A stretch of 64,000 nt of DNA from Parafilimonas sp. (lineage in GTDB: Bacteria > Bacteroidota > Bacteroidia > Chitinophagales > Chitinophagaceae). Below are positions 3,630-58,674 of this stretch, one piece after another. Each line of letters begins with the position of its first letter. Positions within the stretch are counted from its first letter, which is position 1. A program made the translations under genes and the position numbers. The notes below the pieces were generated by a model. The model was not told where the DNA came from and made no database searches. It saw nothing but the letters and a program-made list of their open reading frames with translations. The DNA is taken from the NCBI GenBank assembly GCA_036274175.1, contig DASUGF010000083.1, positions 79,004 to 143,003 on the forward strand, written 5' to 3'.

Positions 3630-5048
3630 ATGGCAGAACAACATTATAACTTCTTCGAAAACGTTACAAAAAGTTTTGACAGGGCAGCAAAATTTACCAA
3701 TTGGGAAACGGGCATCCTGGAACAGATAAAAGTCTGTAATGCCGTTTATAGTATGAAATTCCCGATAAAAAGGGATGATGGTTCTATCGAGGTAATTGAA
3801 GCCTACCGCGTACAACATTCTCATCACAAAACACCTTGCAAAGGCGGAATCAGGTTCAGCGAAGAAGTGAACCAGGATGAAGTGATGGCGCTGGCTGCTT
3901 TAATGACCTATAAATGCGCTATTGTTAATGTACCGTTCGGCGGTGCTAAGGGCGGCATCAAAATAAATCCGCGGGAGTACAGCGCTTTCGAGCTGCAAAA
4001 AATTACGCGCCGCTACACATCTGAGCTGGTGAAGAAAGAATTTATCGGGCCCGGCACTGACGTACCTGCACCTGATTATGGCACGGGAGAAAGAGAGATG
4101 GCCTGGATACTGGATACCTACACCACACTGAATCCCGGCGAAGTTGACGCCATGGGTTGTGTTACCGGGAAACCTGTAGCACAGGGAGGTGTAAGAGGCC
4201 GTAAGGAAGCAACCGGGCTGGGAGTTTTTTATGGAGTGCGGGAAGTGTGCAGCATGCCTGATGTAATGAAAAAGCTGGGACTGTCAACCGGCATTGAAGG
4301 TAAGACAGTTGTGGTGCAGGGACTTGGGAATGTTGGATATCATTCCGCAAAATTCTTCAGAGAACATGGCGCCAAAATAATTGCTATCGCAGAGTATGAA
4401 GGCGCTATTTATGATGAAAATGGCCTGAATGAAGAAGATGTGTTTCAATTCAGGAGAAGCAATAAATCGTTACTAAATTTCCCGGGTGCAACCAATTTAA
4501 AAGCAAGCGGAGACGCGCTTGAACTGGAATGTGATATTTTAATTCCGGCAGCGTTGGAAAATGTGATCAATGCATCCAATGCTGACAGGATCAAGGCAAA
4601 AATAATCGGCGAAGCTGCCAACGGGCCTTTAACTCCTGAAGCTGATGAAGTGCTTTCAAAAAAAGGCATTCTCGTTATTCCTGACATGTACCTGAATGCA
4701 GGCGGCGTAACCGTTTCTTATTTTGAATGGCTGAAAAATTTAAGCCATGTACGGTACGGCAGAATGGAGAAACGTTTTACAGAAAATCTAAACAGGCAGA
4801 TCCTTGGGCAGATGGAGGAACTGACCGGCAAGAGTGTGAACACCCGTGAAAGAATGTTGATCGAACATGGCCCTGATGAAGTTGACCTGGTTTACAGCGG
4901 ACTGGAACAAACGATGATCGAAGCTACCCGTGAGATCATGGCTTGCTGGAAAGCGAATGACAAAATTCCTGATATGCGTACTGCTGCTTATGTAGTGGCC
5001 ATAAACAAAGTAGGAACCAGCTATGCAGAGCTTGGTATCTTCCCATAA
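3630..5048 (+). CDS. gdhA: NAD(P)-glutamate dehydrogenase
   Basis: 472 aa. Glu/Leu/Phe/Val dehydrogenase active-site region KGGIRFSEEV...VNVPFGGAKGGI and a Rossmann motif VQGLGNVG. Confidence 0.9.
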   Translation: MAEQHYNFFENVTKSFDRAAKFTNWETGILEQIKVCNAVYSMKFPIKRDDGSIEVIEAYRVQHSHHKTPCKGGIRFSEEVNQDEVMALAALMTYKCAIVNVPFGGAKGGIKINPREYSAFELQKITRRYTSELVKKEFIGPGTDVPAPDYGTGEREMAWILDTYTTLNPGEVDAMGCVTGKPVAQGGVRGRKEATGLGVFYGVREVCSMPDVMKKLGLSTGIEGKTVVVQGLGNVGYHSAKFFREHGAKIIAIAEYEGAIYDENGLNEEDVFQFRRSNKSLLNFPGATNLKASGDALELECDILIPAALENVINASNADRIKAKIIGEAANGPLTPEADEVLSKKGILVIPDMYLNAGGVTVSYFEWLKNLSHVRYGRMEKRFTENLNRQILGQMEELTGKSVNTRERMLIEHGPDEVDLVYSGLEQTMIEATREIMACWKANDKIPDMRTAAYVVAINKVGTSYAELGIFP

Positions 5049-5062
5049 TAAAATAAAAAATG

Positions 5063-5098
5063 CTTGTATTAAAACCGTTGCAGCGCCAACGGTTTTAA
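5063..5098 (+). terminator. rho-independent terminator after gdhA
   Basis: aaaccgttg-cagcgc-caacggttt is a perfect 9-bp stem, followed by a T-rich tail (ttttaatgttt). Confidence 0.5.
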
Positions 5099-5214
5099 TG
5101 TTTAATGCAGGCAAGGGTAAAGCGAAATAATTTATAACATACTTTGCAAAAGTTTCTTTCCTTTACTCAATTCTAATAAAGAACTAAATTATTCCCTTTT
5201 AGGGGGTCAGGGGC

Positions 5215-6540
5215 ATGAAATACTACATCATTGCAGGGGAAGCGAGTGGCGATCTGCATGGCAGTAATCTTATAAAAGAAATAAAAAAGCTCGATACTGA
5301 TGCTGACATCCGTTGCTGGGGCGGCGATCTCATGCAGGCAGCCGGTGCAACATTGGTAAAACATTACCGCGACCTGGCATTTATGGGTTTTGCAGAAGTG
5401 GTGATGAACCTTAAAACTATCCTTGCCAACCTGAAATTCTGTAAAGAAGATATATTAAAATTTCAGCCTGATGTTTTGGTATTGATCGATTACCCGGGTT
5501 TTAATTTACGCATTGCAGAATGGGCGAAGAAAATGAGGAGTGAGGAACCAGGAATTAGGGATAAGGAATTAGGAATGAGAAATGAGAAATCAGTAATGAG
5601 AAATGAGAAATCAGTAATGAGTGATGAACAGCGACTCACCACTCACCACTCACCACTCATCGCTAAAACTGTCTTCTACATCTCCCCCCAGGTTTGGGCA
5701 TGGAAAGAAAGCCGCGTGCCTAAAATGAAAAAGAATATCGACAGGATGATCGTTATTCTTCCTTTTGAAAAAGATTACTATAAAAACAAATGGCATTGGG
5801 ATGTTGATTATGTGGGACATCCGTTGGTGCAGGTGGTGGAGGAATTTAAGTCCACAGTCCACGGCCGACAGTTCACAGCCGATACTCAGAAGTCAATAGT
5901 CAATAGTGAATGGTCAATGGGCGAGAATTCCCAATTCCCAATTCCCGATTCTCAATTCCAAAATCTTAATATTATCGCCCTGCTGCCGGGAAGCCGCAAA
6001 CAGGAAATTTCAAAAAAGCTTCCGGTCATGCTGGAAGTTAGTAAGGCATTTCCCCAATATCAATTTGTCGTAGCAAAAGCGCCGGCACTTGAAGATGCCT
6101 TTTATGAAAACTTCATGCAGCATTATACCAACGTTTCTTCGGTGACAAACAGGACCTATGAATTGCTGATGCAGGCAAAAGCAGCATTGGTGACCAGCGG
6201 CACTGCAACATTAGAAACCGCTTTGTTTGAAGTACCGGAAGTAGTTTGTTATAAAGGCAGTAATATTAGTTACCAGATCGCAAAGCGGTTGATCAACATA
6301 AAATATATCGCGCTGGTAAATTTAATAATGGACAAGCCGGTTGTAAAAGAACTGATTCAAAATGATCTCACCGTTGAAAATTTAAAGCACGAATTATCCT
6401 TGTTGCTTTTTAATGAAGCAAAACAACAACAGCTAAAAAAAGATTATCAAGACCTGAAAGATATTTTATCAGGCGGTGGTAATGCTTCAGCTAATGCTGC
6501 TAAGATTGTTTTTGATACAGCTTTACCTTACAAGGCTTAA
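5215..6540 (+). CDS. lpxB: lipid-A-disaccharide synthase, carrying two in-frame low-complexity insertions derived from dispersed repeats
   Basis: The N-terminus MKYYIIAGEASGDLHGSNLIKEI is canonical for LpxB, and ISPQVWAWKE and LLPGSRKQEI blocks are present. Two extra segments are translated in frame: MRSEEPGIRDKELGMRNEKSVMRNEKSVMSDEQRLTTHHSPL and STVHGRQFTADTQKSIVNSEWSMGENSQFPIPDSQFQN. Both are encoded by repeat DNA of the kind seen in intergenic regions of this window. Confidence 0.85.
   Translation: MKYYIIAGEASGDLHGSNLIKEIKKLDTDADIRCWGGDLMQAAGATLVKHYRDLAFMGFAEVVMNLKTILANLKFCKEDILKFQPDVLVLIDYPGFNLRIAEWAKKMRSEEPGIRDKELGMRNEKSVMRNEKSVMSDEQRLTTHHSPLIAKTVFYISPQVWAWKESRVPKMKKNIDRMIVILPFEKDYYKNKWHWDVDYVGHPLVQVVEEFKSTVHGRQFTADTQKSIVNSEWSMGENSQFPIPDSQFQNLNIIALLPGSRKQEISKKLPVMLEVSKAFPQYQFVVAKAPALEDAFYENFMQHYTNVSSVTNRTYELLMQAKAALVTSGTATLETALFEVPEVVCYKGSNISYQIAKRLINIKYIALVNLIMDKPVVKELIQNDLTVENLKHELSLLLFNEAKQQQLKKDYQDLKDILSGGGNASANAAKIVFDTALPYKA
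5533..5665. repeat. dispersed short-period repeat element inserted in frame inside lpxB (copy 1)
   Basis: gaatgagaaatgagaaatcagtaatgag repeated twice, then gagtgatga...ctcaccactcaccactcaccactcatc. This has the same unit types (aatgagtaatga and gagtggtgag) as the intergenic element at 33265-33400. Confidence 0.6.
5851..5966. repeat. dispersed short-period repeat element inserted in frame inside lpxB (copy 2)
   Basis: tcaatagtcaatagtgaatggtcaatgg resembles the 18051-18205 element. gaattcccaattcccaattcccgattctcaattccaaaat resembles the 38315-38400 and 21355-21425 octamer repeats. Confidence 0.6.
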
Positions 6541-6726
6541 CAAACATACATATCACATGTTTATCACATTTTGATATTAACAAACCATCAAAGCAGGTTT
6601 TGCGTTACTTAGTAATGGCTGAGTTGTCAGTGGTGAATGGTGAGTAAGCTCTCCATATCTTGGATTAACTCACAATTTACCTCATACGATAACTTACAAT
6701 TAACATACAGTAATACTAAAAGAAGT

Positions 6727-7197
6727 ATGATGAGAACATTTTTATTTGCAGGCATGCTGATCATTGTTGCATTATCTTCCTGTGCTCAGCAACAGGCAGC
6801 GCAAAAATTTGCTGTTACAAAAACAGATGACGAATGGAAAAAAATACTTACGCCTGAACAATTTACCGTTGCAAGAAAAGCAGGCACCGAACGTGCTTTT
6901 AGCGGCAGGTATTGGGATAACCATGAAAAAGGAACCTACTATTGTGTTTGCTGCGGCGTGCCTTTATTCAGCAGTGAAACGAAATTTGAAAGCGGCACGG
7001 GTTGGCCAAGTTTTTATGCGCCTTTAAATAAGAAATATGTAGGGGAAAGAGTGGATGATTCTTATGGCATGGAACGCACCGAAGTGTATTGTACTAATTG
7101 CGGAGCACATTTAGGCCATGTATTTAATGACGGCCCTGCGCCTACCGGTTTGCGTTATTGCATGAACTCTGCATCGCTTAATTTTAAGAAAAAATAA
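6727..7197 (+). CDS. msrB: peptide-methionine (R)-S-oxide reductase MsrB, with lipoprotein-type signal peptide
   Basis: CxxC...CxxC zinc motifs and the catalytic region (YCVCCG...GWPSF...[17 protein letters not shown]). The likely start is ATG 6727 ([22 protein letters not shown]). The ORF-track start at 6637 would translate the upstream repeat DNA. Confidence 0.85.
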
Positions 7198-7235
7198 TGT
7201 GACTGGTGTTAAGTTAAAAGTAAAATACCGCATTT

Positions 7236-7300
7236 TTTCCGTGAGACGTGAGACGACAGACGTGAGATTTTTCACGTCTCACGTTTGACATTTCACGATT
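7236..7300 (+). terminator. hairpin-rich terminator-like element after msrB (tctcacgtttgac family)
   Basis: gtgagacgtgagacgacagacgtgaga-ttttt-cacgtctcacgtttgacatttcacg contains inverted repeats (gacgtga / tcacgtc) around a T-run. The motif tctcacgtttgacRtttca also occurs at 34425-34460. Confidence 0.4.
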
Positions 7301-7493
7301 ACTTAACACTAGTGTTATGTCATGCAGAAATTGTCGCTTTTATTTGCCACGGATCACACAGAAACACGGAAGAATTTGTTGCGACATTATTATGTTGACT
7401 TACCACTAGTATTGAGCGACAAACTACATAAACACACTCTCCGCTTATAAAATCATTATCTTCCGCGCAAAATAAATTTCGACAAACCTATTC

Positions 7494-8735
7494 ATGCGAT
7501 CAATAGAACCACTTATTGTAAAAACACATAAAGCCGCAATTAACCTGCGCAATTGCACAGATACACAGATAAAAAAAACATTGCGTGATCTTGCTGATGC
7601 GCTGGAATCCAATGTGCATGCAATTCTAAAAGCCAATAAAAAAGATGTTGCAAAACAGGATGTAAATGATCCGCGCGTTGACCGTTTATTGCTGAATGAA
7701 CAACGTATAAAAAATATTGCAGGCAGCATCAAAAAAGTAAGCAGGCTGCCCAATCCATCTAATAAAATTCTTGAAAAGCGTAAATTATACAACGGCCTGC
7801 TGTTAGAGAAAATAAGCGTTCCCTTAGGTGTTGTTGGCGCCATATATGAATCAAGGCCAAATGTAACTTTCGATATTGCCGCCTTGTGTTTACGCAGCCA
7901 GAATGCCTGTTTGCTAAAAGGAAGCAGGGAAGCTGAAGCAACCAATCATGTTGCGGTGAAAATAATAAAAGATGTTTTGAAACAAAACAAGATCGATGCT
8001 GATTGTATAACCTTGTTACCCAGTGAACGGGAAGTGGTGCAGGAACTATTCACTGCAACAAAATATGTTGATGTGATCATTCCGCGTGGTTCAGACAGCC
8101 TGATACAATTTGTACGCAAAAACAGTCTTGTGCCTGTAATTGAAACAGGTGCAGGCGTCTGCCATGTTTATGTTGAAACTGATGCCGACATCAATAAAGC
8201 GGTGAGCATTGTTGTAAATGCAAAAACAACGAGGCCTTCTGTTTGCAATTCCCTCGACACAATCGTTGTAGATGAAAAAATTGCAAAACCTTTTTTAGAC
8301 AAGCTTCAACCATTGTTTTCAACCTATCCAGTGGAAATTTTTGCAGATAATAAGTCGTACAAATTATTGAATGGATATGATCATCTTCAAAAAGCATTAC
8401 CCGAAGATTTTGATCGCGAATTCCTTAGCCTGAAATGTGCGGTAAAAACAGTAAAAAACATAGACGAAGCCCTGGCACATATTGCGCAACATTCAACCAA
8501 ACATTCTGAGGCCATCGTATCTGAAAATAAAAAGGCCTGCGAAAGATTTTTGCGTGAAGTGGATGCCGCCGCTGTGTATGCAAATGCTTCTACGCGATTT
8601 ACTGACGGCGAAGAATTTGGTCTTGGTGCAGAGATCGGTATCTCTACCCAAAAATTGCATGCGCGTGGGCCGTTTGCATTGGAAAAACTGGTTTCAGAAA
8701 AATGGGTAGTAAGAGGTAACGGGCAGATCAGGTAA
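7494..8735 (+). CDS. proA: gamma-glutamyl phosphate reductase (glutamate-5-semialdehyde dehydrogenase)
   Basis: 413 aa. ProA-type aldehyde dehydrogenase blocks: VVGAIYESRPNVTFDIAALCLRSQNACLLKGSREA and the catalytic Cys region TRPSVCNSLDTIVV. Confidence 0.85.
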   Translation: MRSIEPLIVKTHKAAINLRNCTDTQIKKTLRDLADALESNVHAILKANKKDVAKQDVNDPRVDRLLLNEQRIKNIAGSIKKVSRLPNPSNKILEKRKLYNGLLLEKISVPLGVVGAIYESRPNVTFDIAALCLRSQNACLLKGSREAEATNHVAVKIIKDVLKQNKIDADCITLLPSEREVVQELFTATKYVDVIIPRGSDSLIQFVRKNSLVPVIETGAGVCHVYVETDADINKAVSIVVNAKTTRPSVCNSLDTIVVDEKIAKPFLDKLQPLFSTYPVEIFADNKSYKLLNGYDHLQKALPEDFDREFLSLKCAVKTVKNIDEALAHIAQHSTKHSEAIVSENKKACERFLREVDAAAVYANASTRFTDGEEFGLGAEIGISTQKLHARGPFALEKLVSEKWVVRGNGQIR

Positions 8736-8787: not shown

Positions 8788-9687
8788 TTGTTAAATTTGA
8801 TCATGCTTTCAAAGCACATTAGAAGAATAACACCAAGGCCAAAAAAGAACAGCAAAGAATATTTTATCTGGTGTGATGAGAGTGATCAGTCCGGCAAATT
8901 TTTTTCTAATTTTTATGGCGGCGTTTTAGTAAAGAGTGAAAACCTGCATGAAGTGATGCATGACCTGCAAAAGGTTTGCAGGCGCCTGCATTTATATGAT
9001 GAAATTAAATGGCAAAAAATTTCCGATCACTATGTGGTAAAATATACCGCGCTGATGGATGCATTTTTTAATTTGATAAAAGATGGCAAAATAAAAGTGC
9101 GCATTATGTTTATTCAAAATACATACAAAACAATTCACCTGCACGATATGCATAAGCGCGATGTTTTTTTTATTTTATATCGCCAGCTTGTCAAACATGC
9201 TTTTGGTTTGATACATAGCAACAACGATGGGAAAGAAATTTTTCTCCGGCTTTATTTCGACTTTCTTCCTTACACACTGAAGAAAAAAGAAATATTTAAA
9301 CAATCGCTCAATAACCTTCAGTCATCAAGTTCTTTTCAACTGGCAGGTATCAAAATAAGAAAACGGGATATATCGGAAGTTGACTCTAAAAAACATTTAT
9401 TGCTGCAAACGCTTGACGTTGTGTTAGGCGCTGTATGCTTTTACTTAAACAACAAACACAAAGAAATTCTGCAGCAAAAGGAAGGAAGCCGGCGTACAAG
9501 GGCAAAAGAAAAAGTATATAAATACATCAATAAAAGAATAAAGCAGATAAGGAAGGGATTTAATATGAGTACTTCAACGGGCATCACTTCAGAACAGGAT
9601 CATTGGATACATAATTACCGTCACTGGAGATTTACACCTGCAGCATTTGAGGCAGATAATGAAAGCATTTTATTCGCGACACATTAA
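8788..9687 (+). CDS. DUF3800-family protein (uncharacterised; often in accessory or defense islands)
   Basis: 299 aa. Begins YFIWCDESDQSGKFF, matching the hhhDESG motif, and has LQTLDVVLGAV, matching lQlaDllaG. Both are recalled DUF3800 signatures. The region looks lower in GC than proA upstream; this is judged by eye only. Confidence 0.55.
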   Translation: MLNLIMLSKHIRRITPRPKKNSKEYFIWCDESDQSGKFFSNFYGGVLVKSENLHEVMHDLQKVCRRLHLYDEIKWQKISDHYVVKYTALMDAFFNLIKDGKIKVRIMFIQNTYKTIHLHDMHKRDVFFILYRQLVKHAFGLIHSNNDGKEIFLRLYFDFLPYTLKKKEIFKQSLNNLQSSSSFQLAGIKIRKRDISEVDSKKHLLLQTLDVVLGAVCFYLNNKHKEILQQKEGSRRTRAKEKVYKYINKRIKQIRKGFNMSTSTGITSEQDHWIHNYRHWRFTPAAFEADNESILFATH

Positions 9688-18050: not shown

Positions 18051-18205
18051 ATTTGCCCGCTGATGGTGAATGGTGAATAGTCAATTGTCAATGGTTCAAT
18101 CGGGGAATACGCAATAATCAATGTTCAATATTCAATGCTCATTGATAAACGTTCTCCACTTGAATATTGATTATTAAGTGTTGAATATTGAATATTTGTG
18201 ATTTA
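18051..18205 (+). repeat. dispersed ~10-bp-period repeat element forming a G·U-containing hairpin on the + strand RNA
   Basis: ggtgaatggtgaatagtcaattgtcaatggttcaatcggggaatacgcaataatcaatgttcaatattcaatg ... cacttgaatattgattattaagtgttgaatattgaatatttgtg. The 3' arm is the reverse complement of the 5' arm with A-to-G and C-to-T changes, so it pairs through wobble only in the + strand RNA. It lies between co-directional + strand genes. Confidence 0.55.
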
Positions 18206-21354: not shown

Positions 21355-21425
21355 AAGCCGGATCACAAAATCCCAAAATCCCGAAATCCCGAAATCCCGA
21401 AATCTCAAAATCCCGAAATCATAAA
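21355..21425. repeat. octamer tandem repeat (aatcccgaa)n
   Basis: cccaaaatcccgaaatcccgaaatcccgaaatctcaaaatcccgaaatc. It is the reverse complement of the 38315-38400 repeat (atttcgggatttgtggattttgagatt). Confidence 0.6.
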
Positions 21426-21523
21426 TTATTTGGCTTTATGGCGTAAATCACCTCTTAATTTGTCGTTTTTACACATGTTTCTTTTTGCATAACTGTTTAT
21501 GTTTGCTGTTAAATTTCAGCTAT

Positions 21524-29954: not shown

Positions 29955-30150
29955 CTACTTGAATATGCTTATTGCTTGTTGATTATGCCTTGCAGAATAA
30001 AAGCAATTTCAAAACGCTCAATATTCAATGTTCAATATTCAATGCCCAGGGAGAAATTCCAAAACTTGAATATTGAGTGTTGAGTGTTGATTATTGATTG
30101 TTTGAATTTATGTTTTACTGAGTAAGGGCAGCCACTCAATATTCATTGCT
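29955..30150 (+). repeat. dispersed ~10-bp-period repeat element; + strand-specific wobble hairpin between GH43 and prmA
   Basis: 5' arm gctcaatattcaatgttcaatattcaatg. 3' arm cttgaatattgagtgttgagtgttga. Every deviation from perfect complementarity is A-to-G or C-to-T in the 3' arm, which gives G·U pairs on the + RNA and A·C mismatches on the - RNA. Further caatattca units follow at 30130-30150. Confidence 0.6.
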
Positions 30151-32634: not shown

Positions 32635-33282
32635 ATGGCAAACATTGGCAGAAAAATTCTTTCGGCTTTTGTGGAAGTAACAGATGACGAAACGCCTGTT
32701 ACAAAGCCGGAAGCAATAAAACAAACATCCACAGTAAATGCGTTAAACGGTCAGACGCTTCCAAAGCGTCAGCCCGATAACAATGAAACAACGCAAAAGT
32801 TCAAACAGTATTTCGACCGGCTTTTTAAAGATGCAAATCTTCCGGGTCCTGATTACTTCGAGTTCTCTAAGATGACCGAAGCCATGGTAAGCATACCGGA
32901 TGAAAAAGCAAGATACAGTGCAGCCTTTGCCGGTTTGAGTGTACAGGGTTTGGATAAACAAAAACTGTTGTATTCGGCAACACAATATGTGGAGGTTTTG
33001 GAAACGGATGCAAATAACTTTCACACAACGGTTGATGCGGCATTAAAAGAAAAAGTGCAAAGCAAACAACAGGAGATTGAAAGTAATTCCAAACGCATGG
33101 AGGCACTCGCAAAAGAAATAACTGATCTGCAAAACAAGATAAATGCGTTACAACTTGAAGTAAAAGAAAATGAAGAGAAGATCGAAAGCAACAGCGGCGC
33201 TTATGCGCGGGAAATGCAGAACATGAAAAATAAAATTTTGCAGGATATAAAAAAGATAGAGCAGTATGTGGGTGAGTGGTGA
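32635..33282 (+). CDS. hypothetical coiled-coil protein
   Basis: 215 aa. The C-terminal half is heptad-rich (KEKVQSKQQEIESNSKRMEALAKEITDLQNKINALQLEVKENEEKIE). Confidence 0.4.
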   Translation: MANIGRKILSAFVEVTDDETPVTKPEAIKQTSTVNALNGQTLPKRQPDNNETTQKFKQYFDRLFKDANLPGPDYFEFSKMTEAMVSIPDEKARYSAAFAGLSVQGLDKQKLLYSATQYVEVLETDANNFHTTVDAALKEKVQSKQQEIESNSKRMEALAKEITDLQNKINALQLEVKENEEKIESNSGAYAREMQNMKNKILQDIKKIEQYVGEW

Positions 33283-33400
33283 GTGGTGAGTGGTGAGTGG
33301 TGGGTGGTGATAGATAATGAATAATGAATAATGAGTAATGAGTAATGAATAATGAGTAATGAATAATGAGTAATGAATAATGAGTACAAGTAAATAATCA
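33265..33400 (+). repeat. C-free purine/T repeat tract (gtgagtggtg)n(aatgaRtaatga)n
   Basis: gtgagtggtgagtggtgagtggtgagtggtgggtggtgatagataatgaataatgaataatgagtaatgagtaatgaataatgagtaatgaataatgagtaatgaataatgagtac. It contains no C for about 125 nt on the + strand. It uses the same unit types as the lpxB insertion at 5533-5665. Confidence 0.6.
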
Positions 33401-36380: not shown

Positions 36381-36639
36381 TCCCCCAGCCCCTAAAGGGG
36401 AGTGAGAAAGGTCACCGCAAAGTCATCTTTCTTTTGAATAAAATTTTTATGAAACCAGCGACAGGGCAGGCATTGAATACGGTTGTAGCTTGTCCCGCAC
36501 TTGATGCGGGATCACTCCCTTGTACTGCATAGCGCTATTCAACAATTTAAACCACTAAGGCGCAATGACACAAAGAAGCACTAAGGCTTTGTAGCACTTA
36601 CCGCCTTCGTGTTAGTGATTCAAAAAAAATAAAACTAAA

Positions 36640-37515
36640 ATGGAAATATTTATCAATAATCCGAACGAAAAGGAAGTACTCTCAAAATCCCCGGGAGTTA
36701 CTAACTCCCCTTTAGGGGTTGGGGGCTCGGGCTGGCGTAGCATCCTCCAACCCTTCGGTCATATCAGCAAACAAACGCTCATCATTATGATCGTACTGCA
36801 GGTGATCATCACCATCACTGCATGGCAAATAACTTCTGATGGTTTGATACCTAAGCCCGGTAACATAGCAACTGCCTTCGGGCAGTTGCTTACTTCCAAA
36901 TTGTTACTGGATAACATGCTGGTAAGTCTATCACTTACTTTAAAAGCCATGTTGTATTCTATCATCATCACATTGTTATTCGCTTATTTATCGGTGATAC
37001 CTTTTTTCAAAACCATTGCGCAATTCATCGTGAAGTGCAGATACTTAACTCTAACCGGTTTAATATTCATCTTCACGTTATTAACCAAAGATGGAAGTGA
37101 ATTAAAATTATCGTTACTCGTATTTGGTATTGTACCATTCTTCACTACCTCATTTCTTTCTGTCATCATCAACATAGACAAACAGGAATATGAATTATGT
37201 AAAACGCTTGGCTATAACAATTGGCAAACATTGTATGAAGTGATCATTGTTGGCAAAGCAGACCAGGTATTTGAAATACTTCGTCAAAACTTCGCTATCG
37301 CCTGGATGATGATAACGATGGTGGAAGGTTTAAGTATGAGTGAAGGCGGCATCGGTACACTGCTCATAAAGTACAACAAGTACAACGACATTACGCATGT
37401 AGTGGCGTTGCAACTCATCATCTTCATCATCGGTTTGTGCTTTGACTATTTATTAGGATTGACAAGACATTGGTTATTCCCTTACAGCAAATTAAAAAAG
37501 GAGACAGCATCATGA
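36640..37515 (+). CDS. ABC transporter permease (NitT/TauT-type)
   Basis: Six TM segments and an EAA-loop-like ELCKTLGYNNWQTLYEVIIVGKADQVF. The true start is probably ATG 36787 (MIVLQVIITITAW). Confidence 0.6.
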   Translation: MEIFINNPNEKEVLSKSPGVTNSPLGVGGSGWRSILQPFGHISKQTLIIMIVLQVIITITAWQITSDGLIPKPGNIATAFGQLLTSKLLLDNMLVSLSLTLKAMLYSIIITLLFAYLSVIPFFKTIAQFIVKCRYLTLTGLIFIFTLLTKDGSELKLSLLVFGIVPFFTTSFLSVIINIDKQEYELCKTLGYNNWQTLYEVIIVGKADQVFEILRQNFAIAWMMITMVEGLSMSEGGIGTLLIKYNKYNDITHVVALQLIIFIIGLCFDYLLGLTRHWLFPYSKLKKETAS

Positions 37516-40498: not shown

Positions 40499-40611
40499 TG
40501 GCAAGTGAGCATCATAAACCGCAACAAATTCTTCTGTGTTTCTGTTTTATTCGTGGCAAATAAAATGACAATTCTTGTTTGAGATAACAACAGTATAACT
40601 CATTCACAGAA

Positions 40612-40745: not shown

Positions 40746-43700
40746 CTATTCTTTAAAGATCAATTTTGAATAACTCCAGTTGCCTATCTGCAGCCTGATT
40801 GTATATATTCCGGGCGTAAGTCCGTTCAATGATAAGTTTACTGTTTGCGGACTTCTCAGGTCTTTTACCTGCCGGAACTCTTTTCTTACAGAACCCTGCA
40901 GATCGGCAACCTGTATTTTTACTATACCTGTATTCTCATTGTTGATCGTCAAATTGAATCTGTCCCTTACAGGGTTAGGACTTATTTCAAAAGAAGATGC
41001 ATCAGCCATCGAAGCTTCCACACGCTCAGTCCGTGAAAAGTCTTCAGTATTTTGTGCGATCAGGCTGCTGCTCTTTGTAAACTCAAGCCAGTTAAAATTG
41101 AAGTCCTGTGCTGCTTTTGAAATTATTCGCAGGGTTTGCGGACCCTGTGGTAGTGTTATACCGGTACTTACTGTTGACCAGGTTTGGTAACCGCCTGTTT
41201 TAGGAATATTCACGTTCGCCAATACAGTTCCATCGGGTTTTGTTATCGACAATTTTGCGGCTGTGTTGGGTGTGGCTATTCTGAAGGTTACATTGTACGT
41301 GCCGGCTGACGATGCATTTACATAGTAATCCAGCCAGTCGTTGTTATTTATCCAGCCTACATTAAGACCGCCACCTGTGTCGCCGGTAGGTTCCATTTGT
41401 ATTCCCAGCATGGTAGTATAAGCTTCGGCCTCAATTTTTGCCGGTATTATTTTGGCTGATGGTACACCGCGTACAAATTCCATCCAGTTAAAATTCCATA
41501 CAAGACTTGCGGTAGAGATGACTCTAATCGTTTGATATCCCTGGGCGAGAGATACAACAATACTTCTCGTGATCCATCCCTGGTAGCTTGCCGTGTTGGG
41601 TAGGTCGAGGCTGCCTAACACAGTGCCATCCGATTTACGCAGTTGCAATTTCGCACCGTTATTCGCAGTTGCCACTCTGAAATTTACCGTATAGGTGCCT
41701 GCAGAATCTACATACACGTTAAAGTCCATCCGATCGCCGTTATCGATCCATCCCACATCGAGGCCACCGCCTGCATCGCTTGTATTTTCCGTTTTTATGC
41801 CACTCATTGAAGTGTAAGCTTCCGCTTCAATCTTTCCGGGAATAAGTTTGTAGCCTGCCAGGATTTGCGTTACAACAACATTCATGTCATCTGTAGCAGT
41901 AGCACCTTTATTATCCGTAACAGTAAGCCGGAACGTGTAAGTACCCGCGACAAGATTAGTTAACACCGGCGCTGCAATATTGGTGTTGCTGATAGTAAAT
42001 TGAGAAGGCCCTGAAACCTTTGTCCAGCCGTAAGAAGCAATGGTGCCATCAACATCAGTACCACTGCCTGATAAGGATACTGTATTCAACGGTAATATAA
42101 TTGATTGATCACTTCCTGCATCGGCAACCGGTGGCTGATTGGGAGCAGAAAGTACCGTAATTATTAAAGTATCTGTTGCTGTTGCGCCTGCTTTATCAGT
42201 AACTTTTAATTCAAACTGGTAAGTGCCTTCTGTAAGATCATTTACAATTGTCTCTTTATCATCCGGAGACGCTATGGAAAATTGGGCAGGCCCGCTAACC
42301 TTGCTCCATAAGTAAGAAGCAATCGGTCCTTCTGCATCTGAAGCGCTGCCTGATAGCAACACACTATCCTTTGGCAACGTAATAACCTGGTCACTTCCTG
42401 CATTGGCAACCGGTGGCTGGTTAGGAACAGGAAGTAAGGTAACCGTTAAAGTATCTGTTGCTGTTGCGCCTGCGTTATCAGTAACTTTTAATTCAAATTG
42501 ATAAGTGCCTTCTGTAAGATCATTTACAATTGTCTTTTTATCATTCGAAGAGGCTATAGAAAATTGTTCAGGTCCGCTTACTTTAGTCCACAAATAAGAT
42601 GCAATAGTGCCGTCGGCATCTGAAGCGTTGCCTGATAGCAACACACTATCCTTGGGCAACGTAATTGTCTGGTCACTTCCTGCATTGGCAACAGGTGGTT
42701 GATTAGGTGCAGGAAGTACCGTAGCTATTAAAGTATCTCTTGCTGTTGCGCCTGCATTATCAGTAACTTTTAATTCAAACTGGTAAGTGCCTTCCGCAAG
42801 ATCATCCACAATTGTCTTTTTATCATTCGAAGAGGCTATAGAAAATTGTTCAGGTCCGCTTAATTTAGTCCACAAATAAGATGCAATAGTGCCGTCGGCA
42901 TCTGAAGCAGTGCCTGATAGCAACACACTATCCTTGGGCAACGTAATTGTCTGGTCACTTCCTGCATTGGCAACAGGCGGTTGATTAGGTGCAGGAAGTA
43001 CCGTAACTATTAAAGTATCTCTTGCTGTTGCGCCTGCATTATCAGTAACTTTTAATTCAAACTGGTAAGTGCCTTCCGCAAGATCATCCACAATTGTCTT
43101 TTTATCATTCGAAGAGGCTATAGAAAATTGTTCAGGTCCGCTTACTTTAGTCCACAAATAAGATGCAATCGTTCCGTCTGCATCCGATGCATTGCCCGAC
43201 AGCGATACGCTATCCTGCGGCAATGAAATTTCCTGGTCGGTTCCCGCGTCAGCAACCGGTGGCTGATTAGGCGGTAATACGGTTATGGTAACTGTGTCTT
43301 TTGACATGTCTCCGTCATTATCTGTAACCATTAATTCAAATTGATAAATTCCTTGTGTCAAACCTGACACTACGGTTTGTGCCTGATGTTTCTGTTCTAT
43401 AAGGAATTGATCCGGCCCGTCAATTTTTTCCCATTGATAATCCGTTATTGTTCCATCTGTATCGGAGCCCGAACCACTTAGAGTAATACTGTCGGCAGGA
43501 AAGTAAATAGCCTGGTCATTTCCTGCATCAGCTACCGGCGGTTGATTAGGTGCAGGAAGTACAGTAACCGTTACGGTGTCTGTTGCTATGCCACCTGTAT
43601 TATCCGTCACTTTTAATTCAAACTGGTAAGTGCCTTCTGTAAGATCATCTGCAATCGTATTTTTATCACCCGGAGATACTATGGAAAATTGTTCGGGTCC

Positions 43701-46376
43701 GCTTACTTTAGTCCACAAATAAGATGCAATAGTGCCGTCGGCATCTGAAGCAGTGCCTGACAGCGATATGCTATCCGTCGGCAATGAAATTTCCTGGTCG
43801 GCACCCGCATCGGCAACCGGTGGCTGATTAGGCGGCAATACGGTTATGGCAACTGTATCTTTTGATATGTCTCCGTCATTATCTGTGACCGTTAATTCAA
43901 ATTGATAAACTCCTTGTGTCAAACCTGAAACTACGGTTTCTGCCTGATGTTTCTGTTCTATCAGGAATTGATCCGGCCCGTCAATTTTTTCCCATTGATA
44001 ATCTGTTATTGTTCCATCGGTATCTGAGCCCGAGCCATTCAGGGTTATATTATCAGCAGGTAAATAGATCACCTGGTCATCACCGGCACTGGCTACAGGA
44101 ATTTTATTAGGAGGCGGGTCCATTACTGATACCATTACTGTGTCAGCCGATGAGGCGCCTTCATTATCTGTTGCGGCTAATTCAAATTGATAAATACCGG
44201 CATGAAGACCACTCACTACAGTTTCCGGTTGATCAGGAGAAACTATATTAAATGAAGCAGGTCCATCAATCTTTTTCCATTGATACGCAGTTATTGTTCC
44301 ATCAGGATCGTTTGCAATGCCTTGAAGTGTTAGAGAATCGGCCGGCAAAATAATTACCCGGTCATTACCGGCGTTTACAAAGGGTGGCTGGTTTGGTTGA
44401 CGCAGCACAGCAATCGTTACAGTATCAGCATCCGACTCGTTATGATCGTCGGTAACAATCAGTTCGAATTTATATACACCTTCCTGGAGACCATTAACCA
44501 ATGTTTGCAACTGGTGTGGCGATTCAATATTGATTTGCCCGGGTCCATTTACCTTGTTCCATACATAAGAAGATATCTTTCCTTCCGGGTCTGAAGCCGT
44601 TCCTGTTAGTGTTACGCTATTAACCGGAAGTGTAATTGCCTGGTCATTTCCTGCATCCGCAACCGGCGGTTTATTGGGAGCAGGCAATACGCTGACCGTT
44701 ACTGTGTCTTTAGCTGCATCACCCGAATTATCCGTCACTTTAAATTCAAACCGGTAAGTGCCTTCTGCAAGATTAGCCACAATCGTCTGCGATTGATTAG
44801 GCGTGATGATAGAAGACGAAACAGGCCCGCTTATTTGACGCCACAGGTAAGCGGAGATGGTACCATCCTGATCCGTTGCAGTGCCTGAAAGTAGCACACT
44901 ATCCAGAGGTAAAGTAATTGACTGATCGTTTCCTGCATTGGCAACCGGGAGCATATTAGGCGCCGGCAATACCGTTATGGTCATCGTATCTTTTGCTGCA
45001 CTCCCTGAGTTGTCAGTTACCTTAAGTTCAAACTGATAAACGCCTTGTACCAGTTTAGTGATAAATGTTTGGGATTGCACGGGGGTGGTAATGAAAAACT
45101 GTGAAGGGCCGCTTATTTTACTCCATAAATAGGATGAGATCGTTCCATCCTGATCTGTCGCAGTACCTGAAGCCAATACGCTATCCAATGGTAAGGTAAT
45201 GGTAAGATCAATTCCTGCATTGACAACAGGTGGCTTATTAGGAGCTGGTAATACAGTTATTGCCACGGTATCCTTTGCGGTTGCGCCTATATTATCGGTG
45301 ACTTTTAGTTCAAACTTATAAATTCCTGCCACAAAATTTCTGATCACTGTTTCAGCCATCGTTGGCGATTCTATGGCAAATTGTGAAGGCCCCGAAATCT
45401 TCGTCCAGACGTAGGAGGTGATGGTGCCATCAATATCTGATGCAGTGCCGGTTATTTTAATAGTGTCTTTTGGTAACGTTACGCTTTTATCCGGTCCGGC
45501 ATTCACTACAGGCAACAGGTTAGGTGGCGGCGGTGGTTGCACGGCATCAGTCCGTTGGTACTGCAACATCCATTCATAAAAATTGCGGCTGATGGAATTA
45601 TTTCTCCAGGAAGCGTCAAACACCATCGTCCAGAGTGCTGTATCGTGCGCATATTTGGGAACGCCGGTGAGCAATGCCGGCACTGCTGGTTTAGGAGTGG
45701 CCGTATTAATTGTATTCACATAGCTGGATGCAAGGCTATATAAACCATCCTGTGTGCCGCATACCGTCCAAACCTTAACGCCATATTTCCCGCTTATGTA
45801 TTTGATATTGGGCGACTCTACATTTGGGTTGTTTACACCCACACTGCTTATAGGAAGTATGGCAGCAAACTTTTTGGTAAAATTACTGTCATTGGTTACG
45901 GATGACCATGTGCCGCCGCCACCGGATGAGATACCCATTATATATACCCTTTTCGCATCAACCCTGTACCGGCTCATAACATCCGGCAATATATTTTTTA
46001 CATGCGTATAGCTGTACGACCAACCGCTGCTGGTTGGAGCCTGTGGAGTAACCACTATAAACTTATACGTTTTCCCATCTGCCGGATTAACAGCCTGCGG
46101 ATCCCATCCTTCTGCTATTTTCCTGGGTAAGCCAACATTGAGCAGCTTGGATAATCCCTGGATGCCATCGCCTACTTCTCCGGCAGCATGCAGAAATATG
46201 ATCAGCGGGTAATAGGTATTGGTGGAATTATAATCTGCAGGCAGCCAGGTGAGTCCATATGTTTTGGAACCACCGCCGATGGGATACTGATCAGCCAATT
46301 GCCTGCCGATAATTGTTTGAGCAGTTGCATTAAATTCAAGACAAACCAATAACACCAGGAGTAAAGGAGTTTTCAT
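40746..46376 (-). CDS. T9SS-secreted multidomain protein: esterase/PHB-depolymerase-like alpha/beta hydrolase + ~13 PKD-like repeats + 2 carbohydrate-binding modules + T9SS C-terminal sorting domain
   Basis: 1876 aa. Signal peptide. N-terminal hydrolase with GISSGGGGTWS. About 13 units of ~95 aa beginning VNAGxDQxITLP and ending TDNxGAxAxDT. Two CBM6/35-like modules (KIEAEAYTSMSGIKTENTSDAGGGLDVGWIDNGD). C-terminal FEISPNPVRDRFNL...GIYTIRLQIGNWSYSKLIFKE is a Por/T9SS sorting domain. Confidence 0.85.
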   Translation of the reverse strand: MKTPLLLVLLVCLEFNATAQTIIGRQLADQYPIGGGSKTYGLTWLPADYNSTNTYYPLIIFLHAAGEVGDGIQGLSKLLNVGLPRKIAEGWDPQAVNPADGKTYKFIVVTPQAPTSSGWSYSYTHVKNILPDVMSRYRVDAKRVYIMGISSGGGGTWSSVTNDSNFTKKFAAILPISSVGVNNPNVESPNIKYISGKYGVKVWTVCGTQDGLYSLASSYVNTINTATPKPAVPALLTGVPKYAHDTALWTMVFDASWRNNSISRNFYEWMLQYQRTDAVQPPPPPNLLPVVNAGPDKSVTLPKDTIKITGTASDIDGTITSYVWTKISGPSQFAIESPTMAETVIRNFVAGIYKFELKVTDNIGATAKDTVAITVLPAPNKPPVVNAGIDLTITLPLDSVLASGTATDQDGTISSYLWSKISGPSQFFITTPVQSQTFITKLVQGVYQFELKVTDNSGSAAKDTMTITVLPAPNMLPVANAGNDQSITLPLDSVLLSGTATDQDGTISAYLWRQISGPVSSSIITPNQSQTIVANLAEGTYRFEFKVTDNSGDAAKDTVTVSVLPAPNKPPVADAGNDQAITLPVNSVTLTGTASDPEGKISSYVWNKVNGPGQINIESPHQLQTLVNGLQEGVYKFELIVTDDHNESDADTVTIAVLRQPNQPPFVNAGNDRVIILPADSLTLQGIANDPDGTITAYQWKKIDGPASFNIVSPDQPETVVSGLHAGIYQFELAATDNEGASSADTVMVSVMDPPPNKIPVASAGDDQVIYLPADNITLNGSGSDTDGTITDYQWEKIDGPDQFLIEQKHQAETVVSGLTQGVYQFELTVTDNDGDISKDTVAITVLPPNQPPVADAGADQEISLPTDSISLSGTASDADGTIASYLWTKVSGPEQFSIVSPGDKNTIADDLTEGTYQFELKVTDNTGGIATDTVTVTVLPAPNQPPVADAGNDQAIYFPADSITLSGSGSDTDGTITDYQWEKIDGPDQFLIEQKHQAQTVVSGLTQGIYQFELMVTDNDGDMSKDTVTITVLPPNQPPVADAGTDQEISLPQDSVSLSGNASDADGTIASYLWTKVSGPEQFSIASSNDKKTIVDDLAEGTYQFELKVTDNAGATARDTLIVTVLPAPNQPPVANAGSDQTITLPKDSVLLSGTASDADGTIASYLWTKLSGPEQFSIASSNDKKTIVDDLAEGTYQFELKVTDNAGATARDTLIATVLPAPNQPPVANAGSDQTITLPKDSVLLSGNASDADGTIASYLWTKVSGPEQFSIASSNDKKTIVNDLTEGTYQFELKVTDNAGATATDTLTVTLLPVPNQPPVANAGSDQVITLPKDSVLLSGSASDAEGPIASYLWSKVSGPAQFSIASPDDKETIVNDLTEGTYQFELKVTDKAGATATDTLIITVLSAPNQPPVADAGSDQSIILPLNTVSLSGSGTDVDGTIASYGWTKVSGPSQFTISNTNIAAPVLTNLVAGTYTFRLTVTDNKGATATDDMNVVVTQILAGYKLIPGKIEAEAYTSMSGIKTENTSDAGGGLDVGWIDNGDRMDFNVYVDSAGTYTVNFRVATANNGAKLQLRKSDGTVLGSLDLPNTASYQGWITRSIVVSLAQGYQTIRVISTASLVWNFNWMEFVRGVPSAKIIPAKIEAEAYTTMLGIQMEPTGDTGGGLNVGWINNNDWLDYYVNASSAGTYNVTFRIATPNTAAKLSITKPDGTVLANVNIPKTGGYQTWSTVSTGITLPQGPQTLRIISKAAQDFNFNWLEFTKSSSLIAQNTEDFSRTERVEASMADASSFEISPNPVRDRFNLTINNENTGIVKIQVADLQGSVRKEFRQVKDLRSPQTVNLSLNGLTPGIYTIRLQIGNWSYSKLIFKE
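41880..45540 (-). repeat. tandem ~285-nt coding repeats (PKD-like modules); several are near-identical at nucleotide level
   Basis: For example the 42400-43250 units differ by only a few nt (…ctggtcacttcctgcattggcaacaggtggttgattaggtgcaggaagtaccgta…). The repeat is protein-coding, not CRISPR. Confidence 0.8.
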
Positions 46377-54071: not shown

Positions 54072-54650
54072 ATGTCAACCCGTACAATTCATTCCGAATC
54101 CAGCTTATATTTCATAACCTTTACCTGTTTTAATTGGCTGCATCTCTTTCAACTTACCAACAGTTATGACACGGTTTATAAATGGTTCAGCCATCTTAAA
54201 GAACAAAAGAATATAAAAACTACTACCTACGCCCCGAAAGCTTTCGGGGTGCCCAACCATGTTCATTGTATTTTATTCTTTCCTTCACCAGATTTTTCAT
54301 TAAACAAAATCATCAGCAATGGAAAACGATTTATAGCGTATGAAATAATTAATAGATTAGAAGCAACAAATCAAACCGAAACATTAAATGAATTAGAATC
54401 AGCTTTAACTGCAAAAGAAAAAACTAAAGGTCAAAAACATAAAGTATTTGAAGAAAGCTTTGATGCAAAAAGCATAGATAATAAAAAGTTCTTTTTAAAG
54501 AAGTTGAACTACATTCATTTAAATCCGTTCGTGGTAATTGGAACTTAGTAACCGACTGGAGAGAATATGAACATAGCAGCGCAGGGTTTTATGAGTTACA
54601 GCAAGTAAAACATTTTACTCCGGTTCATTATGAAGAATTAGAATAAAACG
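54072..54650 (+). pseudogene. REP-associated tyrosine transposase (RAYT, IS200-like Y1 HuH), frameshifted near 3' end
   Basis: The HuH motif VPNHVHCILF and the Tyr region KRFIAYEI are present. The frame breaks at about 54535: aatccgttcgtgg here, against aatcctgttcgtgg in the duplicated copy. With the missing T restored, the ORF continues ...NPVRGNWNLVTDWREYEHSS...EELE to 54650. Confidence 0.65.
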
Positions 54651-54701
54651 CAGGGTCTCGTAGCCGCACACAAGCCTTTACGAAGACCCTGCTGTGACGT
54701 G
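54647..54701. repeat. REP element, type 1 (contains GTAG)
   Basis: aacgcagggtctcgtagccgcacacaagcctttacgaagaccctgctgtgacgtg. The inverted arms are gcagggtct / agaccctgc. Confidence 0.7.
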
Positions 54702-54998
54702 AATAGATTAGAAGCAACAAATCAAACCGAAACAGTAAATGAATTAGAATCAGCTTTAACTGCAAAAGAAAAAGCCAAAGGTCAAAAACATAAAGTATTT
54801 GAAGAAAGCTTTGATGCAAAAAGCATAGATAATAAAAAGTTCTTTTTAAAGAAGTTGAACTACATTCATTTAAATCCTGTTCGTGGTAACTGGAACTTAG
54901 TAACCGACTGGAGAGAATATGAACATAGCAGCGCAGGGTTGTATGAGCTACAACAAGTAAAGCATTTTACACCGGTTCATTATGAAGAATTAGAATAA
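54699..54998 (+). pseudogene. partial tandem duplicate of RAYT 3' two-thirds (99-aa fragment)
   Basis: 54704-55055 is a ~352-bp near-identical tandem copy of 54351-54701. The duplication junction falls exactly at the REP end, gacgtg|aatagattagaag. Confidence 0.65.
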
Positions 54999-55054
54999 CA
55001 CGCAGGGTCTCGTGGCCGTACTCAAAGCCTTTACGAAGACCCTGCTGTGACGTG
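54999..55054. repeat. REP element, type 1
   Basis: acgcagggtctcgtggccgtactcaaagcctttacgaagaccctgctgtgacgtg. Confidence 0.7.
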
Positions 55055-55073
55055 ACTTACTCACCAACAAAAC

Positions 55074-57412: not shown

Positions 57413-57511
57413 GACGAATTCGATAGTATGAAACTATGTTGCTTCGTTTTAAGAGCGCCTTGTTGGTGACAACACCCAACAAGGGCGAGGTGACAACACC
57501 CAACAAGGGTG
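57413..57511. repeat. ~85-nt repeated hairpin element (copy 1, with duplicated 3' arm) inserted between the two cistrons of the minus-strand molybdoenzyme operon
   Basis: gacgaattcgatagtatgaaactatgttgcttcgttttaagagcg-ccttgttgg-tgacaacac-ccaacaaggg-cgagg-tgacaacac-ccaacaaggg. The ccttgttgg / ccaacaagg stem is perfect over 9 bp. Confidence 0.6.
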
Positions 57512-58130: not shown

Positions 58131-58204
58131 GACGAATTCGATTGTATGAAATTATGTTGCTTTTGTTTTGGAACACCTTGTTGGTGACAACACCCAACAA
58201 GGGC
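58131..58204. repeat. ~85-nt repeated hairpin element (copy 2)
   Basis: gacgaattcgattgtatgaaattatgttgcttttgttttggaaca-ccttgttgg-tgacaacac-ccaacaaggg, then REP type 1 at 58214-58270. Confidence 0.6.
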
Positions 58205-58213
58205 GGAGAATAA

Positions 58214-58270
58214 CACGCAGGGTCTCGTAGCCGCACACAAAGCCTTTACGAAGACCCTGCTATGACGTGA
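58214..58270. repeat. REP element, type 1
   Basis: acgcagggtctcgtagccgcacacaaagcctttacgaagaccctgctatgacgtga. Confidence 0.7.
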
Positions 58271-58297
58271 AAAAAATACGTCAACATTACGTCTATT

Positions 58298-58410
58298 TCA
58301 TCTGCTTTAGCAGTGTCTCAGCCTCAACCACAATAGTACATGGAGCACAATAGAAGACACATAGGACTATGTGTAAATCTATGTTTCTACTGTGCCTTAT
58401 GTGGTTCATT
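58298..58410 (-). ncRNA. candidate structured cis-regulatory RNA element, copy B (minus-strand orientation, leader of minus-strand molybdoenzyme operon)
   Basis: The minus-strand reading gaaccacataaggcacagtagaaac...acacatagtcctatgtgt...ttctattgtgctccatgtactattgtggttgaggctgagacactgc aligns to copy A at about 80% identity. The outer stem is conserved. The inner hairpin sequence differs but pairing is kept. Confidence 0.35.
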
Positions 58411-58513
58411 TTCAAATTCAGGCACCATCCCTCTTTTGCAAACCACCCGCCGACACTGGCTCCATTTTTGTAAATTCGCAATCGTATCAATAATAAAAAT
58501 CATGGTTTCCGTC

Positions 58514-58575
58514 ACAGCAAGATCTTCATAGCATTGCTAATGAGCACAGGATGAGACCCTGCGTCCTACAACAGG
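58514..58575. repeat. REP-like element, type 2 (degenerate left arm)
   Basis: cacagcaagatcttcatagcattgctaatgagcacaggatgagaccctgcgtcctacaacagg. Confidence 0.5.
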
Positions 58576-58674
58576 TAAACATTTTATCCCGCTTTATTAT
58601 GGAGAATTAGAATAAAAACGCAGGATCTCGCAGCCATACACACAGAGCTCTTGCGAAGACCCTGCTGTGACGTG
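58576..58674. repeat. degenerate RAYT 3'-end remnant + REP type 1
   Basis: gtaaacattttatcccgctttattatggagaattagaataa approximates the RAYT 3' end (gtaaaacattttactccggttcattatgaagaattagaataa). It is followed by aacgcaggatctcgcagccatacacacagagctcttgcgaagaccctgctgtgacgtg. Confidence 0.55.

Follow-up and report, generated by a model that had tools for sequence, protein, structure and literature searches.

The lpxB gene for lipid-A-disaccharide synthase (LpxB) carries two long low-complexity inserts in a soil bacterium of the Chitinophagaceae near Parafilimonas. The gene occupies positions 5215 to 6540 (forward strand) of a 64,000-nucleotide stretch of genomic DNA, here called the window, and its inserts are probably heptanucleotide tandem arrays lodged in two permissive connectors of the enzyme, translated with it and filtered by the need for an open frame. 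LpxB is an antibiotic target and lpxB is an essential gene for a lipid A enzyme; it is presumably essential in the present organism as well.

Many genes of this genome have simple repeats of the same class downstream. Within lpxB the arrays would occupy two permissive connecting segments of the GT-B fold and be transcribed and translated along with the gene to yield two disordered and presumably neutral loops. Slipped-strand duplication and deletion would alter them, as would point mutation and, probably, copying or homogenization between loci. Since lpxB is needed, a variant would persist only with its frame kept and free of in-frame stops. Heptamer arrays in lpxB are well explained by such known processes, and similar cases are known in other bacteria.

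Heptamer arrays in an intact LpxB

The lpxB product has 441 aa, compared with 368 to 418 aa for LpxB of relatives, and the excess is confined to two sites. The protein belongs to the GT19 LpxB family by both a profile match (Pfam PF02684, E value of 8e-80) and a match to a solved structure, E. coli LpxB 5w8s (E value of 6e-33), in an alignment covering the whole GT-B fold. This alignment falls into three blocks (query residues 5 to 105, 151 to 206, and 252 to 432) and leaves residues 106 to 150 and 207 to 251 unmatched. An earlier reading made from the sequence alone (the sequence-only reading) had quoted two low-complexity insert peptides, and both are present, with the alignment gaps lying there. 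The best PDB matches of an AlphaFold2 (AF2) model of the protein are E. coli LpxB as well (5w8n, 5w8s, and 5w8x; E value of 1e-19). The catalytic and substrate motifs known from E. coli LpxB comprise D98, a groove of V125, W126, and W128, and a PGSR loop with S200 and R201; in the same numbering, the N-domain spans residues 1 to 166, followed by linkers and by the C-domain from residue 177 (Bohl 2018, PMC5785501). The Asp, the groove and the PGSR loop are all present in the window protein, where IDYPGFN (containing D92) aligns with E. coli IDAPDFN, SPQVWAW with SPSVWAW, and LLPGSRKQE with LLPGSRGAE. The D92, SPxVWAW, and PGSR columns are invariant among 33 relatives.

The closest relative with DNA for comparison is a sister species represented by a metagenome contig (L081). 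Between the two lpxB cores, nonsynonymous divergence (dN) is 0.039, synonymous divergence (dS) is 0.61 and dN/dS is 0.063, and the gdh/lpxB/msrB/proA neighborhood is conserved among relatives, L081 included. Window lpxB is thus a functional gene under purifying selection. The sequence-only reading had stated that the inserts preserve the frame and the conserved LpxB blocks beside them and that the gene tolerates them, and the intact open reading frame (ORF) and its low dN/dS agree with both statements. An extra gene of 244 aa without a Pfam match lies between gdh and lpxB in L081 (L081 positions 4102 to 4836), compared with a gap of only 166 nt (5049 to 5214) in the window.

Written out in register, insert 1 consists of a left array of 14 heptamers of the AATGAGN type (5532 to 5629, forward strand, approximately residues 106 to 139), four bases, and a right array of four ACTCACC heptamers, the last being ACTCATC (5634 to 5661, forward strand), which encodes LTTHHSPL and shows partial complementarity to the left array's end. 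Insert 2 consists of 16 heptamers in a single register (5849 to 5960, forward strand, approximately residues 212 to 249) at the junction of the N- and C-domains, and its units drift along the array from AGTCCAC to AGTCAAT to AATTCCC types without a break in register. Tandem Repeats Finder (TRF) reports AATGAGG repeated 12.9 times at 5532 to 5621, where a period of 21 fits better than 7, and ACTCACC repeated 3.7 times at 5634 to 5659; at insert 2, it reports 5849 to 5882, AGTCAAT repeated 4 times at 5891 to 5918, and AATTCCC repeated 4.9 times at 5926 to 5959. The lpxB arrays are imperfect (77 to 85% matches). With 3.7 to 12.9 head-to-tail copies they qualify as heptanucleotide tandem repeats, for which at least three to four such copies above chance are expected. 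In the window, 13 arrays of period 7, 14, or 21 are observed compared to 0.47 expected from 30 dinucleotide-preserving shuffles, and five of the 13 lie inside lpxB; over 527 kb of related loci, these periods account for 102 of 205 arrays. A motif chosen after the data were seen, NNT[GC]A[AG]N, fits most window units. The units AGTCAAC and GGTCAAT presumably resemble rotations of cyanobacterial short tandemly repeated repetitive (STRR) units.

How does a repeat of 7 nt stay open inside a coding sequence? A 7-nt unit meets all three codon phases every 21 nt, so that in a TGA-containing repeat every third unit must carry a mutation. A clean change of length takes a multiple of 21 nt, the shortest length to satisfy heptamer register and reading frame at once. 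All 34 heptamers leave the 441-codon frame open. In the left array of insert 1, none of the four in-phase units contains a stop, whereas 9 of the 10 out-of-phase units retain TGA or TAA (Fisher p = 0.005); the AATGAGA unit includes TGA, and the four in-phase positions read CCA, TTA, TCA, and TCA. Insert 1 of L081 has the same pattern, with stops in 0 of 3 in-phase units and 5 of 6 out-of-phase units. At the AGTCAAT array of insert 2, the sole unit boundary with a would-be in-frame TAG reads TGG. This phase-specific loss of stops appears to be a product of purifying selection on an open frame, and a decaying or untranslated segment would be expected to look different. Length also follows the 21-nt rule. 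Site 1 of the window and of L081 align with a single gap of exactly 42 nt, the window being longer, and with 89% nucleotide identity. The left array further contains an exact 21-nt tandem duplication (5574 to 5594, repeated at 5595 to 5615), the newest expansion at this site.

The AF2 model, built from a 33-sequence alignment, has a mean predicted local distance difference test score (pLDDT) of 79.5. The score falls below 50 over two long segments, residues 114 to 143 and 219 to 249, with shorter dips at 56 to 63 and 160 to 162, and a confident fold flanks each insert. Insert 1 separates helix 94-109, the helix after the catalytic Asp92, from strand 151-155, which leads into the SPQVWAW groove. 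Insert 2 separates helix 203-217 from strand 253-257 where the two Rossmann domains join, immediately ahead of the PGSR loop. Both are connecting segments within about 15 residues of a functional motif. The sequence-only reading had expected the inserts in surface loops, and they do fall in segments that AlphaFold models as disordered. Judging from the model, each insert is most likely a disordered, polar surface loop of low complexity, about 45 residues long at site 1 and about 38 at site 2.

Two old and variable sites in LpxB of relatives

LpxB was compared across 81 loci of relatives (labeled by L numbers, such as L081). A scan of genomes gave a best match of 73% identity. Site 1, measured as the segment between PGFNLRI and YISPQVWAW, has 54 aa in the window, 40 aa in the sister species L081, 18 to 30 aa in all but one of the 12 closest genome relatives, and 13 aa in 60 more distant relatives (L013 onward). 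An array is found at this site in all 12 closest genome relatives, including the remaining one (L010), and in the sister species, indicating that site 1 is occupied throughout a Parafilimonas-like clade. Its units vary by species, being AAGCTMA, GTCAACN, or AATGAGN plus ACTCACC. Site 2, measured between GHPLV and LPGSR, spans 20 to 95 aa across the family and is a family-wide hot spot. Nearly every expansion there is a heptamer array, commonly with a unit array, a loop and a complementary array in succession. The sequence-only reading had left room for inserts peculiar to one strain, and the ortholog alignment argues otherwise at both sites.

In total, 30 of the 81 relatives have TRF-detectable arrays of the period-7 type within lpxB, and many relatives have no insert in the gene at all. 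Over about 430 kb flanking lpxB in these relatives, arrays are almost all non-coding and the neighboring genes are almost never hit. Arrays also lie directly upstream of the lpxB start or just past its stop at many loci (e.g., L014 2884 to 2921, L021 2886 to 2939, L046 2828 to 2917, L078 2891 to 2992, and L056 4170 to 4205), and in L056 the array downstream of lpxB is approximately the reverse complement of the in-gene array about 630 nt away. In-frame arrays are seen in two other proteins as well: an M1-type peptidase of L056 (4844 to 4929), with a hairpin CGTTTCT ... AGAAACG, and, in L014 (1278 to 1383), a type IX secretion system surface protein, in the linker that leads to its C-terminal secretion tail.

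The two inserts have changed at different rates. Nucleotide conservation of insert 1 equals that of the gene core (89% identity to L081), and insert 2 cannot be aligned with its L081 counterpart (26% identity). Inserts of the L081 type are identical in three independent metagenome assemblies (one from ENA and two from JGI), and the 408-aa LpxB form is present in five protein clusters, indicating that the architecture is neither an accident of assembly nor hypermutable in the short term. A scan of metagenomes with one 20-nt flank-plus-array pattern gave two more sister-species contigs and three chance matches, and no alleles of the window's own species. Overall, the inserts are two old, orthologous, hypervariable loops that carry repeats, and the first has expanded recently.

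Repeats elsewhere in the window and the origin of the inserts

Outside lpxB, heptamer arrays occur at five intergenic places of the window, four of them TRF-detected. By a crude gene map all five lie downstream of the nearest same-strand ORF, and three begin within about 45 nt past a stop codon or overlap it. A degenerate heptamer hairpin, recognized by eye, fills part of the lpxB-msrB gap (6618 to 6700, forward strand; GCTGAGT TGTCAGT GGTGAAT GGTGAGT ... AACTCAC AATTTAC), and the ACTCACC array of insert 1 matches it at 6620 to 6645 (blastn, 88% over 26 nt). Downstream of msrB, CGTGAGA units and their complement form a hairpin (7240 to 7290, forward strand; TRF) that folds at -26.3 kcal/mol over 7236 to 7296 (z score of -5.2). 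Arrays and a hairpin lie just after the stop codon at 18050 (18063 to 18203, forward strand; GGTGAAT/AGTCAAT, then an ATTCAAT/GTTCAAT hairpin; TRF arrays at 18063 to 18196; fold z score of -2.1). Another hairpin lies downstream of a GH43 gene (30005 to 30106, forward strand; TRF arrays at 30018 to 30102; -33.4 kcal/mol and a z score of -5.8 over 30005 to 30110). The closest kin of insert 1 are direct arrays at 33271 to 33386 (forward strand), GGTGAGT repeated 5.7 times and AATGART repeated 10 times, which do not fold (z score of +1.9 over 33265 to 33395); a direct array at 21355 to 21430 does not fold either. Within the 64 kb of genome seen, these repeats are dispersed, mostly non-coding and made of lineage-specific units. 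The stop codon of a 215-aa ORF without a Pfam match (32635 to 33282, forward strand) falls inside the GGTGAGT array (33271 to 33310), so that the repeat supplies its last residues, VGEW, and the stop.

The sequence-only reading had derived the inserts from the same units as the intergenic repeats. This holds well for insert 1: its ACTCACC array and 33273 to 33298 are exact complements over 26 nt (100%, E value of 2e-9), and its AATGAGN array matches 33330 to 33377 at 83% identity across 48 nt. It holds less well for insert 2, whose best BLAST match (18076 to 18095, 20 nt at 90%) is at chance level and whose units are within one mismatch of those at 18063 and 30018. The repeats it had named as kin are of the same short-period class, except that those at 21368 and 38367 have a period of 8, not 7 (TRF).

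Are the inserts copies of a mobile element? That reading, in which a REP/MITE-like or other actively dispersed repeat (repetitive extragenic palindromic element or miniature inverted-repeat transposable element) entered lpxB twice and was tolerated, instead of arrays having grown in place, draws on real links between loci. Heptamer units are extremely diverse, with 76 distinct units among 98 arrays, and are common within a genome far more than between genomes. When the window was added to the 81 loci, 12 pairs of different loci of the same genome shared units at a distance of one or less, compared to 2.9 expected, a level reached in 0 of 2,000 label permutations and in 0 of 300 composition-controlled permutations in which letters were permuted within units; the repeats thus form genome-specific families. 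One unit is common to both lpxB sites in L005 and in L008, and one recurs at three separate loci in L014. Within the window, besides the stretches common to insert 1 and 33271, the hairpins at 18112 to 18198 and 30005 to 30104, 12 kb apart, have arms that are 85 to 87% identical and loops that differ. Each follows a same-strand ORF, at a distance of about 60 nt and 95 nt, respectively, from its stop codon. This pair is the window's best hint of copying between loci.

The structure expected of a discrete element dropping into the gene, which the sequence-only reading had proposed, is nonetheless missing. Terminal inverted repeats and target-site duplications were not found in the lpxB inserts or their kin, nor was a constant length or unit-length consensus, and no shared ends were found among the repeat loci of the window. 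In a comparison of filled with empty orthologous sites, about four codons proved to be replaced by the insert, with no duplicated flank. No conserved palindrome consensus of the REP/REPIN kind was found, the hairpins being made of varying heptamers, and neither a REP-associated tyrosine transposase (RAYT) nor any other transposase is encoded by the 20 window ORFs scanned besides lpxB. The two arrays common to lpxB and 33271 are inverted in lpxB and direct at 33271, meaning that the two loci are not copies of one element, and the diversity of units itself fits a mobile element poorly. Site 1, moreover, is orthologously occupied across the clade and 89% identical in L081, which excludes a recent insertion there. 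Transposition is therefore unsupported, in the lack of terminal repeats, target duplication, a constant element or recent insertion, and we regard a mobile element as unlikely.

A still less probable reading is that the inserts were selected for a function, either as in-gene RNA or DNA hairpins that pace translation or affect mRNA stability where the two domains meet or as peptide loops that tune how LpxB is regulated or associates with the membrane. In its favor, lpxB is strongly enriched in arrays compared with its neighboring genes, insert 1 is as conserved as the gene core, and very stable in-gene hairpins occur at site 2 of some relatives (L021, -55 kcal/mol and a z score of -8). Within insert 1 of the window, a local hairpin at 5600 to 5665 reaches -16.4 kcal/mol (z score of -3.3). 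However, hairpins are not a general feature of the window inserts, which as wholes fold no better than shuffles (z scores of -1.4 and -1.1), and the lpxB inserts of L077 and L015 likewise fold like shuffles. Many relatives are insert-free, the sister species has an unrelated insert 2, and both inserts are modeled as disordered. Sequence, length, and folding are thus not conserved, which disfavors a functional role. Other candidate roles were rejected in the same region. The only terminator-like hits within lpxB are antisense, inside insert 1, and reliant on G-T pairs, leaving no case for a promoter or terminator; an intein, an intron, or a known RNA is likewise unsupported, with LpxB the only Pfam domain in the protein and no significant Rfam match (a scan of 5000 to 7600 at an E value of 1 or lower gave only two sub-threshold hits to microRNA models). 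Least credible of all is an artifact or pseudogene, that is, misassembled repeats or a decaying lpxB with a functional copy elsewhere: copy-number errors are common for tandem repeats in short-read assemblies, the 441-aa protein is on record nowhere else, and 64 kb of the genome is visible, but the frame is open through every heptamer with phase-specific stop avoidance, dN/dS is low, the gene neighborhood is conserved, and the same architecture recurs in three independent sister-species assemblies and five protein clusters.

We therefore return to heptamer arrays that grew and changed within two permissive connectors, against which several points weigh. A look-up of the exact 441-aa protein gave no record elsewhere, and the exact copy number, as read here, depends on this one assembly. 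Insert 2 was wholly replaced since the split from L081, faster than simple array drift suggests. Slippage does not account for the status of lpxB as a hot spot, nor, acting locally and alone, for the sharing of units within genomes, nor for the approximately 85% identity of hairpins 12 kb apart. We also infer, from the open frame and its selection, that the inserts are translated. Unit sharing and the similar hairpins show a connection between loci that goes beyond slippage of a purely local kind. Some copying or homogenizing process is thus likely to act in addition to slippage, and copying, gene conversion, and a sequence-specific process would fit these data alike.

Several features of the window lie apart from the heptamer arrays. 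Just downstream of proA, a TIR-STING protein (PF10137 plus PF20300; 9741 to 10682, reverse strand), a CBASS-type (cyclic oligonucleotide-based antiphage signaling system) effector, adjoins a DUF3800 protein (8803 to 9687, forward strand), and the pair is also present in the relative carrying P0006. Within an ORF of 1,876 aa (40746 to 46376, reverse strand), a 282-nt (94-aa) repeat forms a tandem array of 11 or more copies with 63 to 100% identity; the product is likely to be a large surface protein made of repeated Ig-like domains. Repeats of about 350 nt in direct orientation (98% and 91% identical) occur in the region of 54351 to 55063, 58131 to 58683, and 57413 to 57487 together with three copies of a 64-nt motif, AGAATAACACGCAGGGTCTCG...GACCCTGCTGTGACGTGA; they flank molybdopterin-dehydrogenase and 2Fe-2S genes and could be repeated regulatory or RNA elements. 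A 46-nt sequence, TTTTATTTGCCACGGATCACACAGAAACACGGAAGAATTTGTTGCG, at 7338 to 7383 has an inverted copy 33 kb away (40520 to 40565, 91% identity); one copy lies just upstream of proA, and Rfam gave no match at the first copy. Finally, a 28-nt inverted repeat, CCCCCAGCCCCTAAAGGGGAGTGAGAAA (36382 to 36409 and 36698 to 36725, 89% complementary), flanks about 290 nt between two genes and could mark a small inserted element.

Comparison with known repeat systems

What does an array in lpxB add to the knowledge of heptamer repeats? To our knowledge, the origin of this repeat class has been an open question since 1990. The lpxB case illustrates how a period that is not a multiple of three can persist inside a core enzyme gene, and it extends heptamer-repeat biology to the Chitinophagaceae, with arrays in lpxB of 30 of the 81 species. 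The sharing of units within genomes is a testable signal of spread by more than local slippage. Two positions of LpxB would tolerate about 40 extra disordered residues, which is useful for tag engineering and for reading alignments, and over-long low-complexity orthologs in Chitinophagaceae annotations would be real proteins, not frameshift or assembly errors. A bolder and rather improbable reading is that Chitinophagaceae have a process that copies or regenerates heptamer arrays in a genome-specific manner and writes new protein loops, with the lpxB junction as a preferred target, and that the arrays influence LpxB synthesis or activity as mRNA hairpins or as loops. If true, it would be an undescribed route of protein-loop innovation and a mechanism for the repeat class, and it could relate to whatever spreads heptamers in cyanobacteria and Beggiatoaceae.

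Heptamers are the commonest long simple-sequence repeats in many bacteria, according to Mrazek et al. 2007 as cited in two later papers (PMC4679880, PMC4692102). They are known in cyanobacteria (STRR), Xanthomonas (GGGAATC), Nostoc (GGGGAYT), and Beggiatoaceae (PMC4692102, PMC4679880), and about a third of the Nostoc repeats are intragenic (PMC4692102). The arrays described here resemble them in having a few to tens of 7-nt copies at many loci, mostly intergenic and near gene ends, sometimes inverted, and with lengths that vary between close relatives. They differ in their host family, the Chitinophagaceae, for which a literature search found no paper on heptamer repeats (not proof that none exists), in having many units per genome with none dominant, and in lying, within lpxB, in frame in a conserved enzyme with documented phase-specific stop avoidance. 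A well-described case, TAACTGA, is found in Beggiatoaceae, cyanobacteria, and five Bacteroidetes in a patchy distribution (MacGregor 2015, PMC4679880). It lies mostly just upstream of start codons, where translational regulation was proposed, with other heptamers in the same intergenic regions, and only one of its orientations allows translation into a 7-residue peptide repeat (PMC4679880). The window arrays are likewise direct heptamer repeats of patchy phylogeny reaching the Bacteroidetes, but they have many units and lie mostly downstream of stop codons or within lpxB.

As at contingency loci, lpxB contains a non-triplet tandem repeat in an ORF, where a change by one unit shifts the frame. 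Phase variation is not indicated here, however, since the arrays are imperfect, the gene encodes a core enzyme, the sole length difference found is 42 nt with the frame kept, and the inserts are identical in three samples of the L081 species, with no sign of on/off switching. MITEs and REP/REPIN sequences are short, non-coding, dispersed, often hairpin-forming repeats between genes, and MITEs occasionally fuse in frame with host ORFs. The window arrays share the small size, the dispersal, the frequent hairpins and the concentration between genes, and lack the defining ends, target-site duplications, and unit length.

A parallel in manner of life is offered by Rickettsia palindromic elements (RPEs), hairpin repeats found in frame in unrelated housekeeping genes, apparently translated and at fold-compatible positions (PMC10969869). 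The lpxB inserts similarly occupy a host ORF in frame where the fold permits it. RPEs, however, are about 100 to 150 bp long and form defined families with conserved sequence and encoded peptide, whereas the lpxB inserts are built of 7-nt units, have no conserved sequence and differ in length and content between orthologous sites, with site 1 holding several unit types and insert 2 only 26% identical to that of L081. The lpxB inserts thus work like RPEs but are neither RPEs nor MITEs, and they belong to the heptamer-repeat class.

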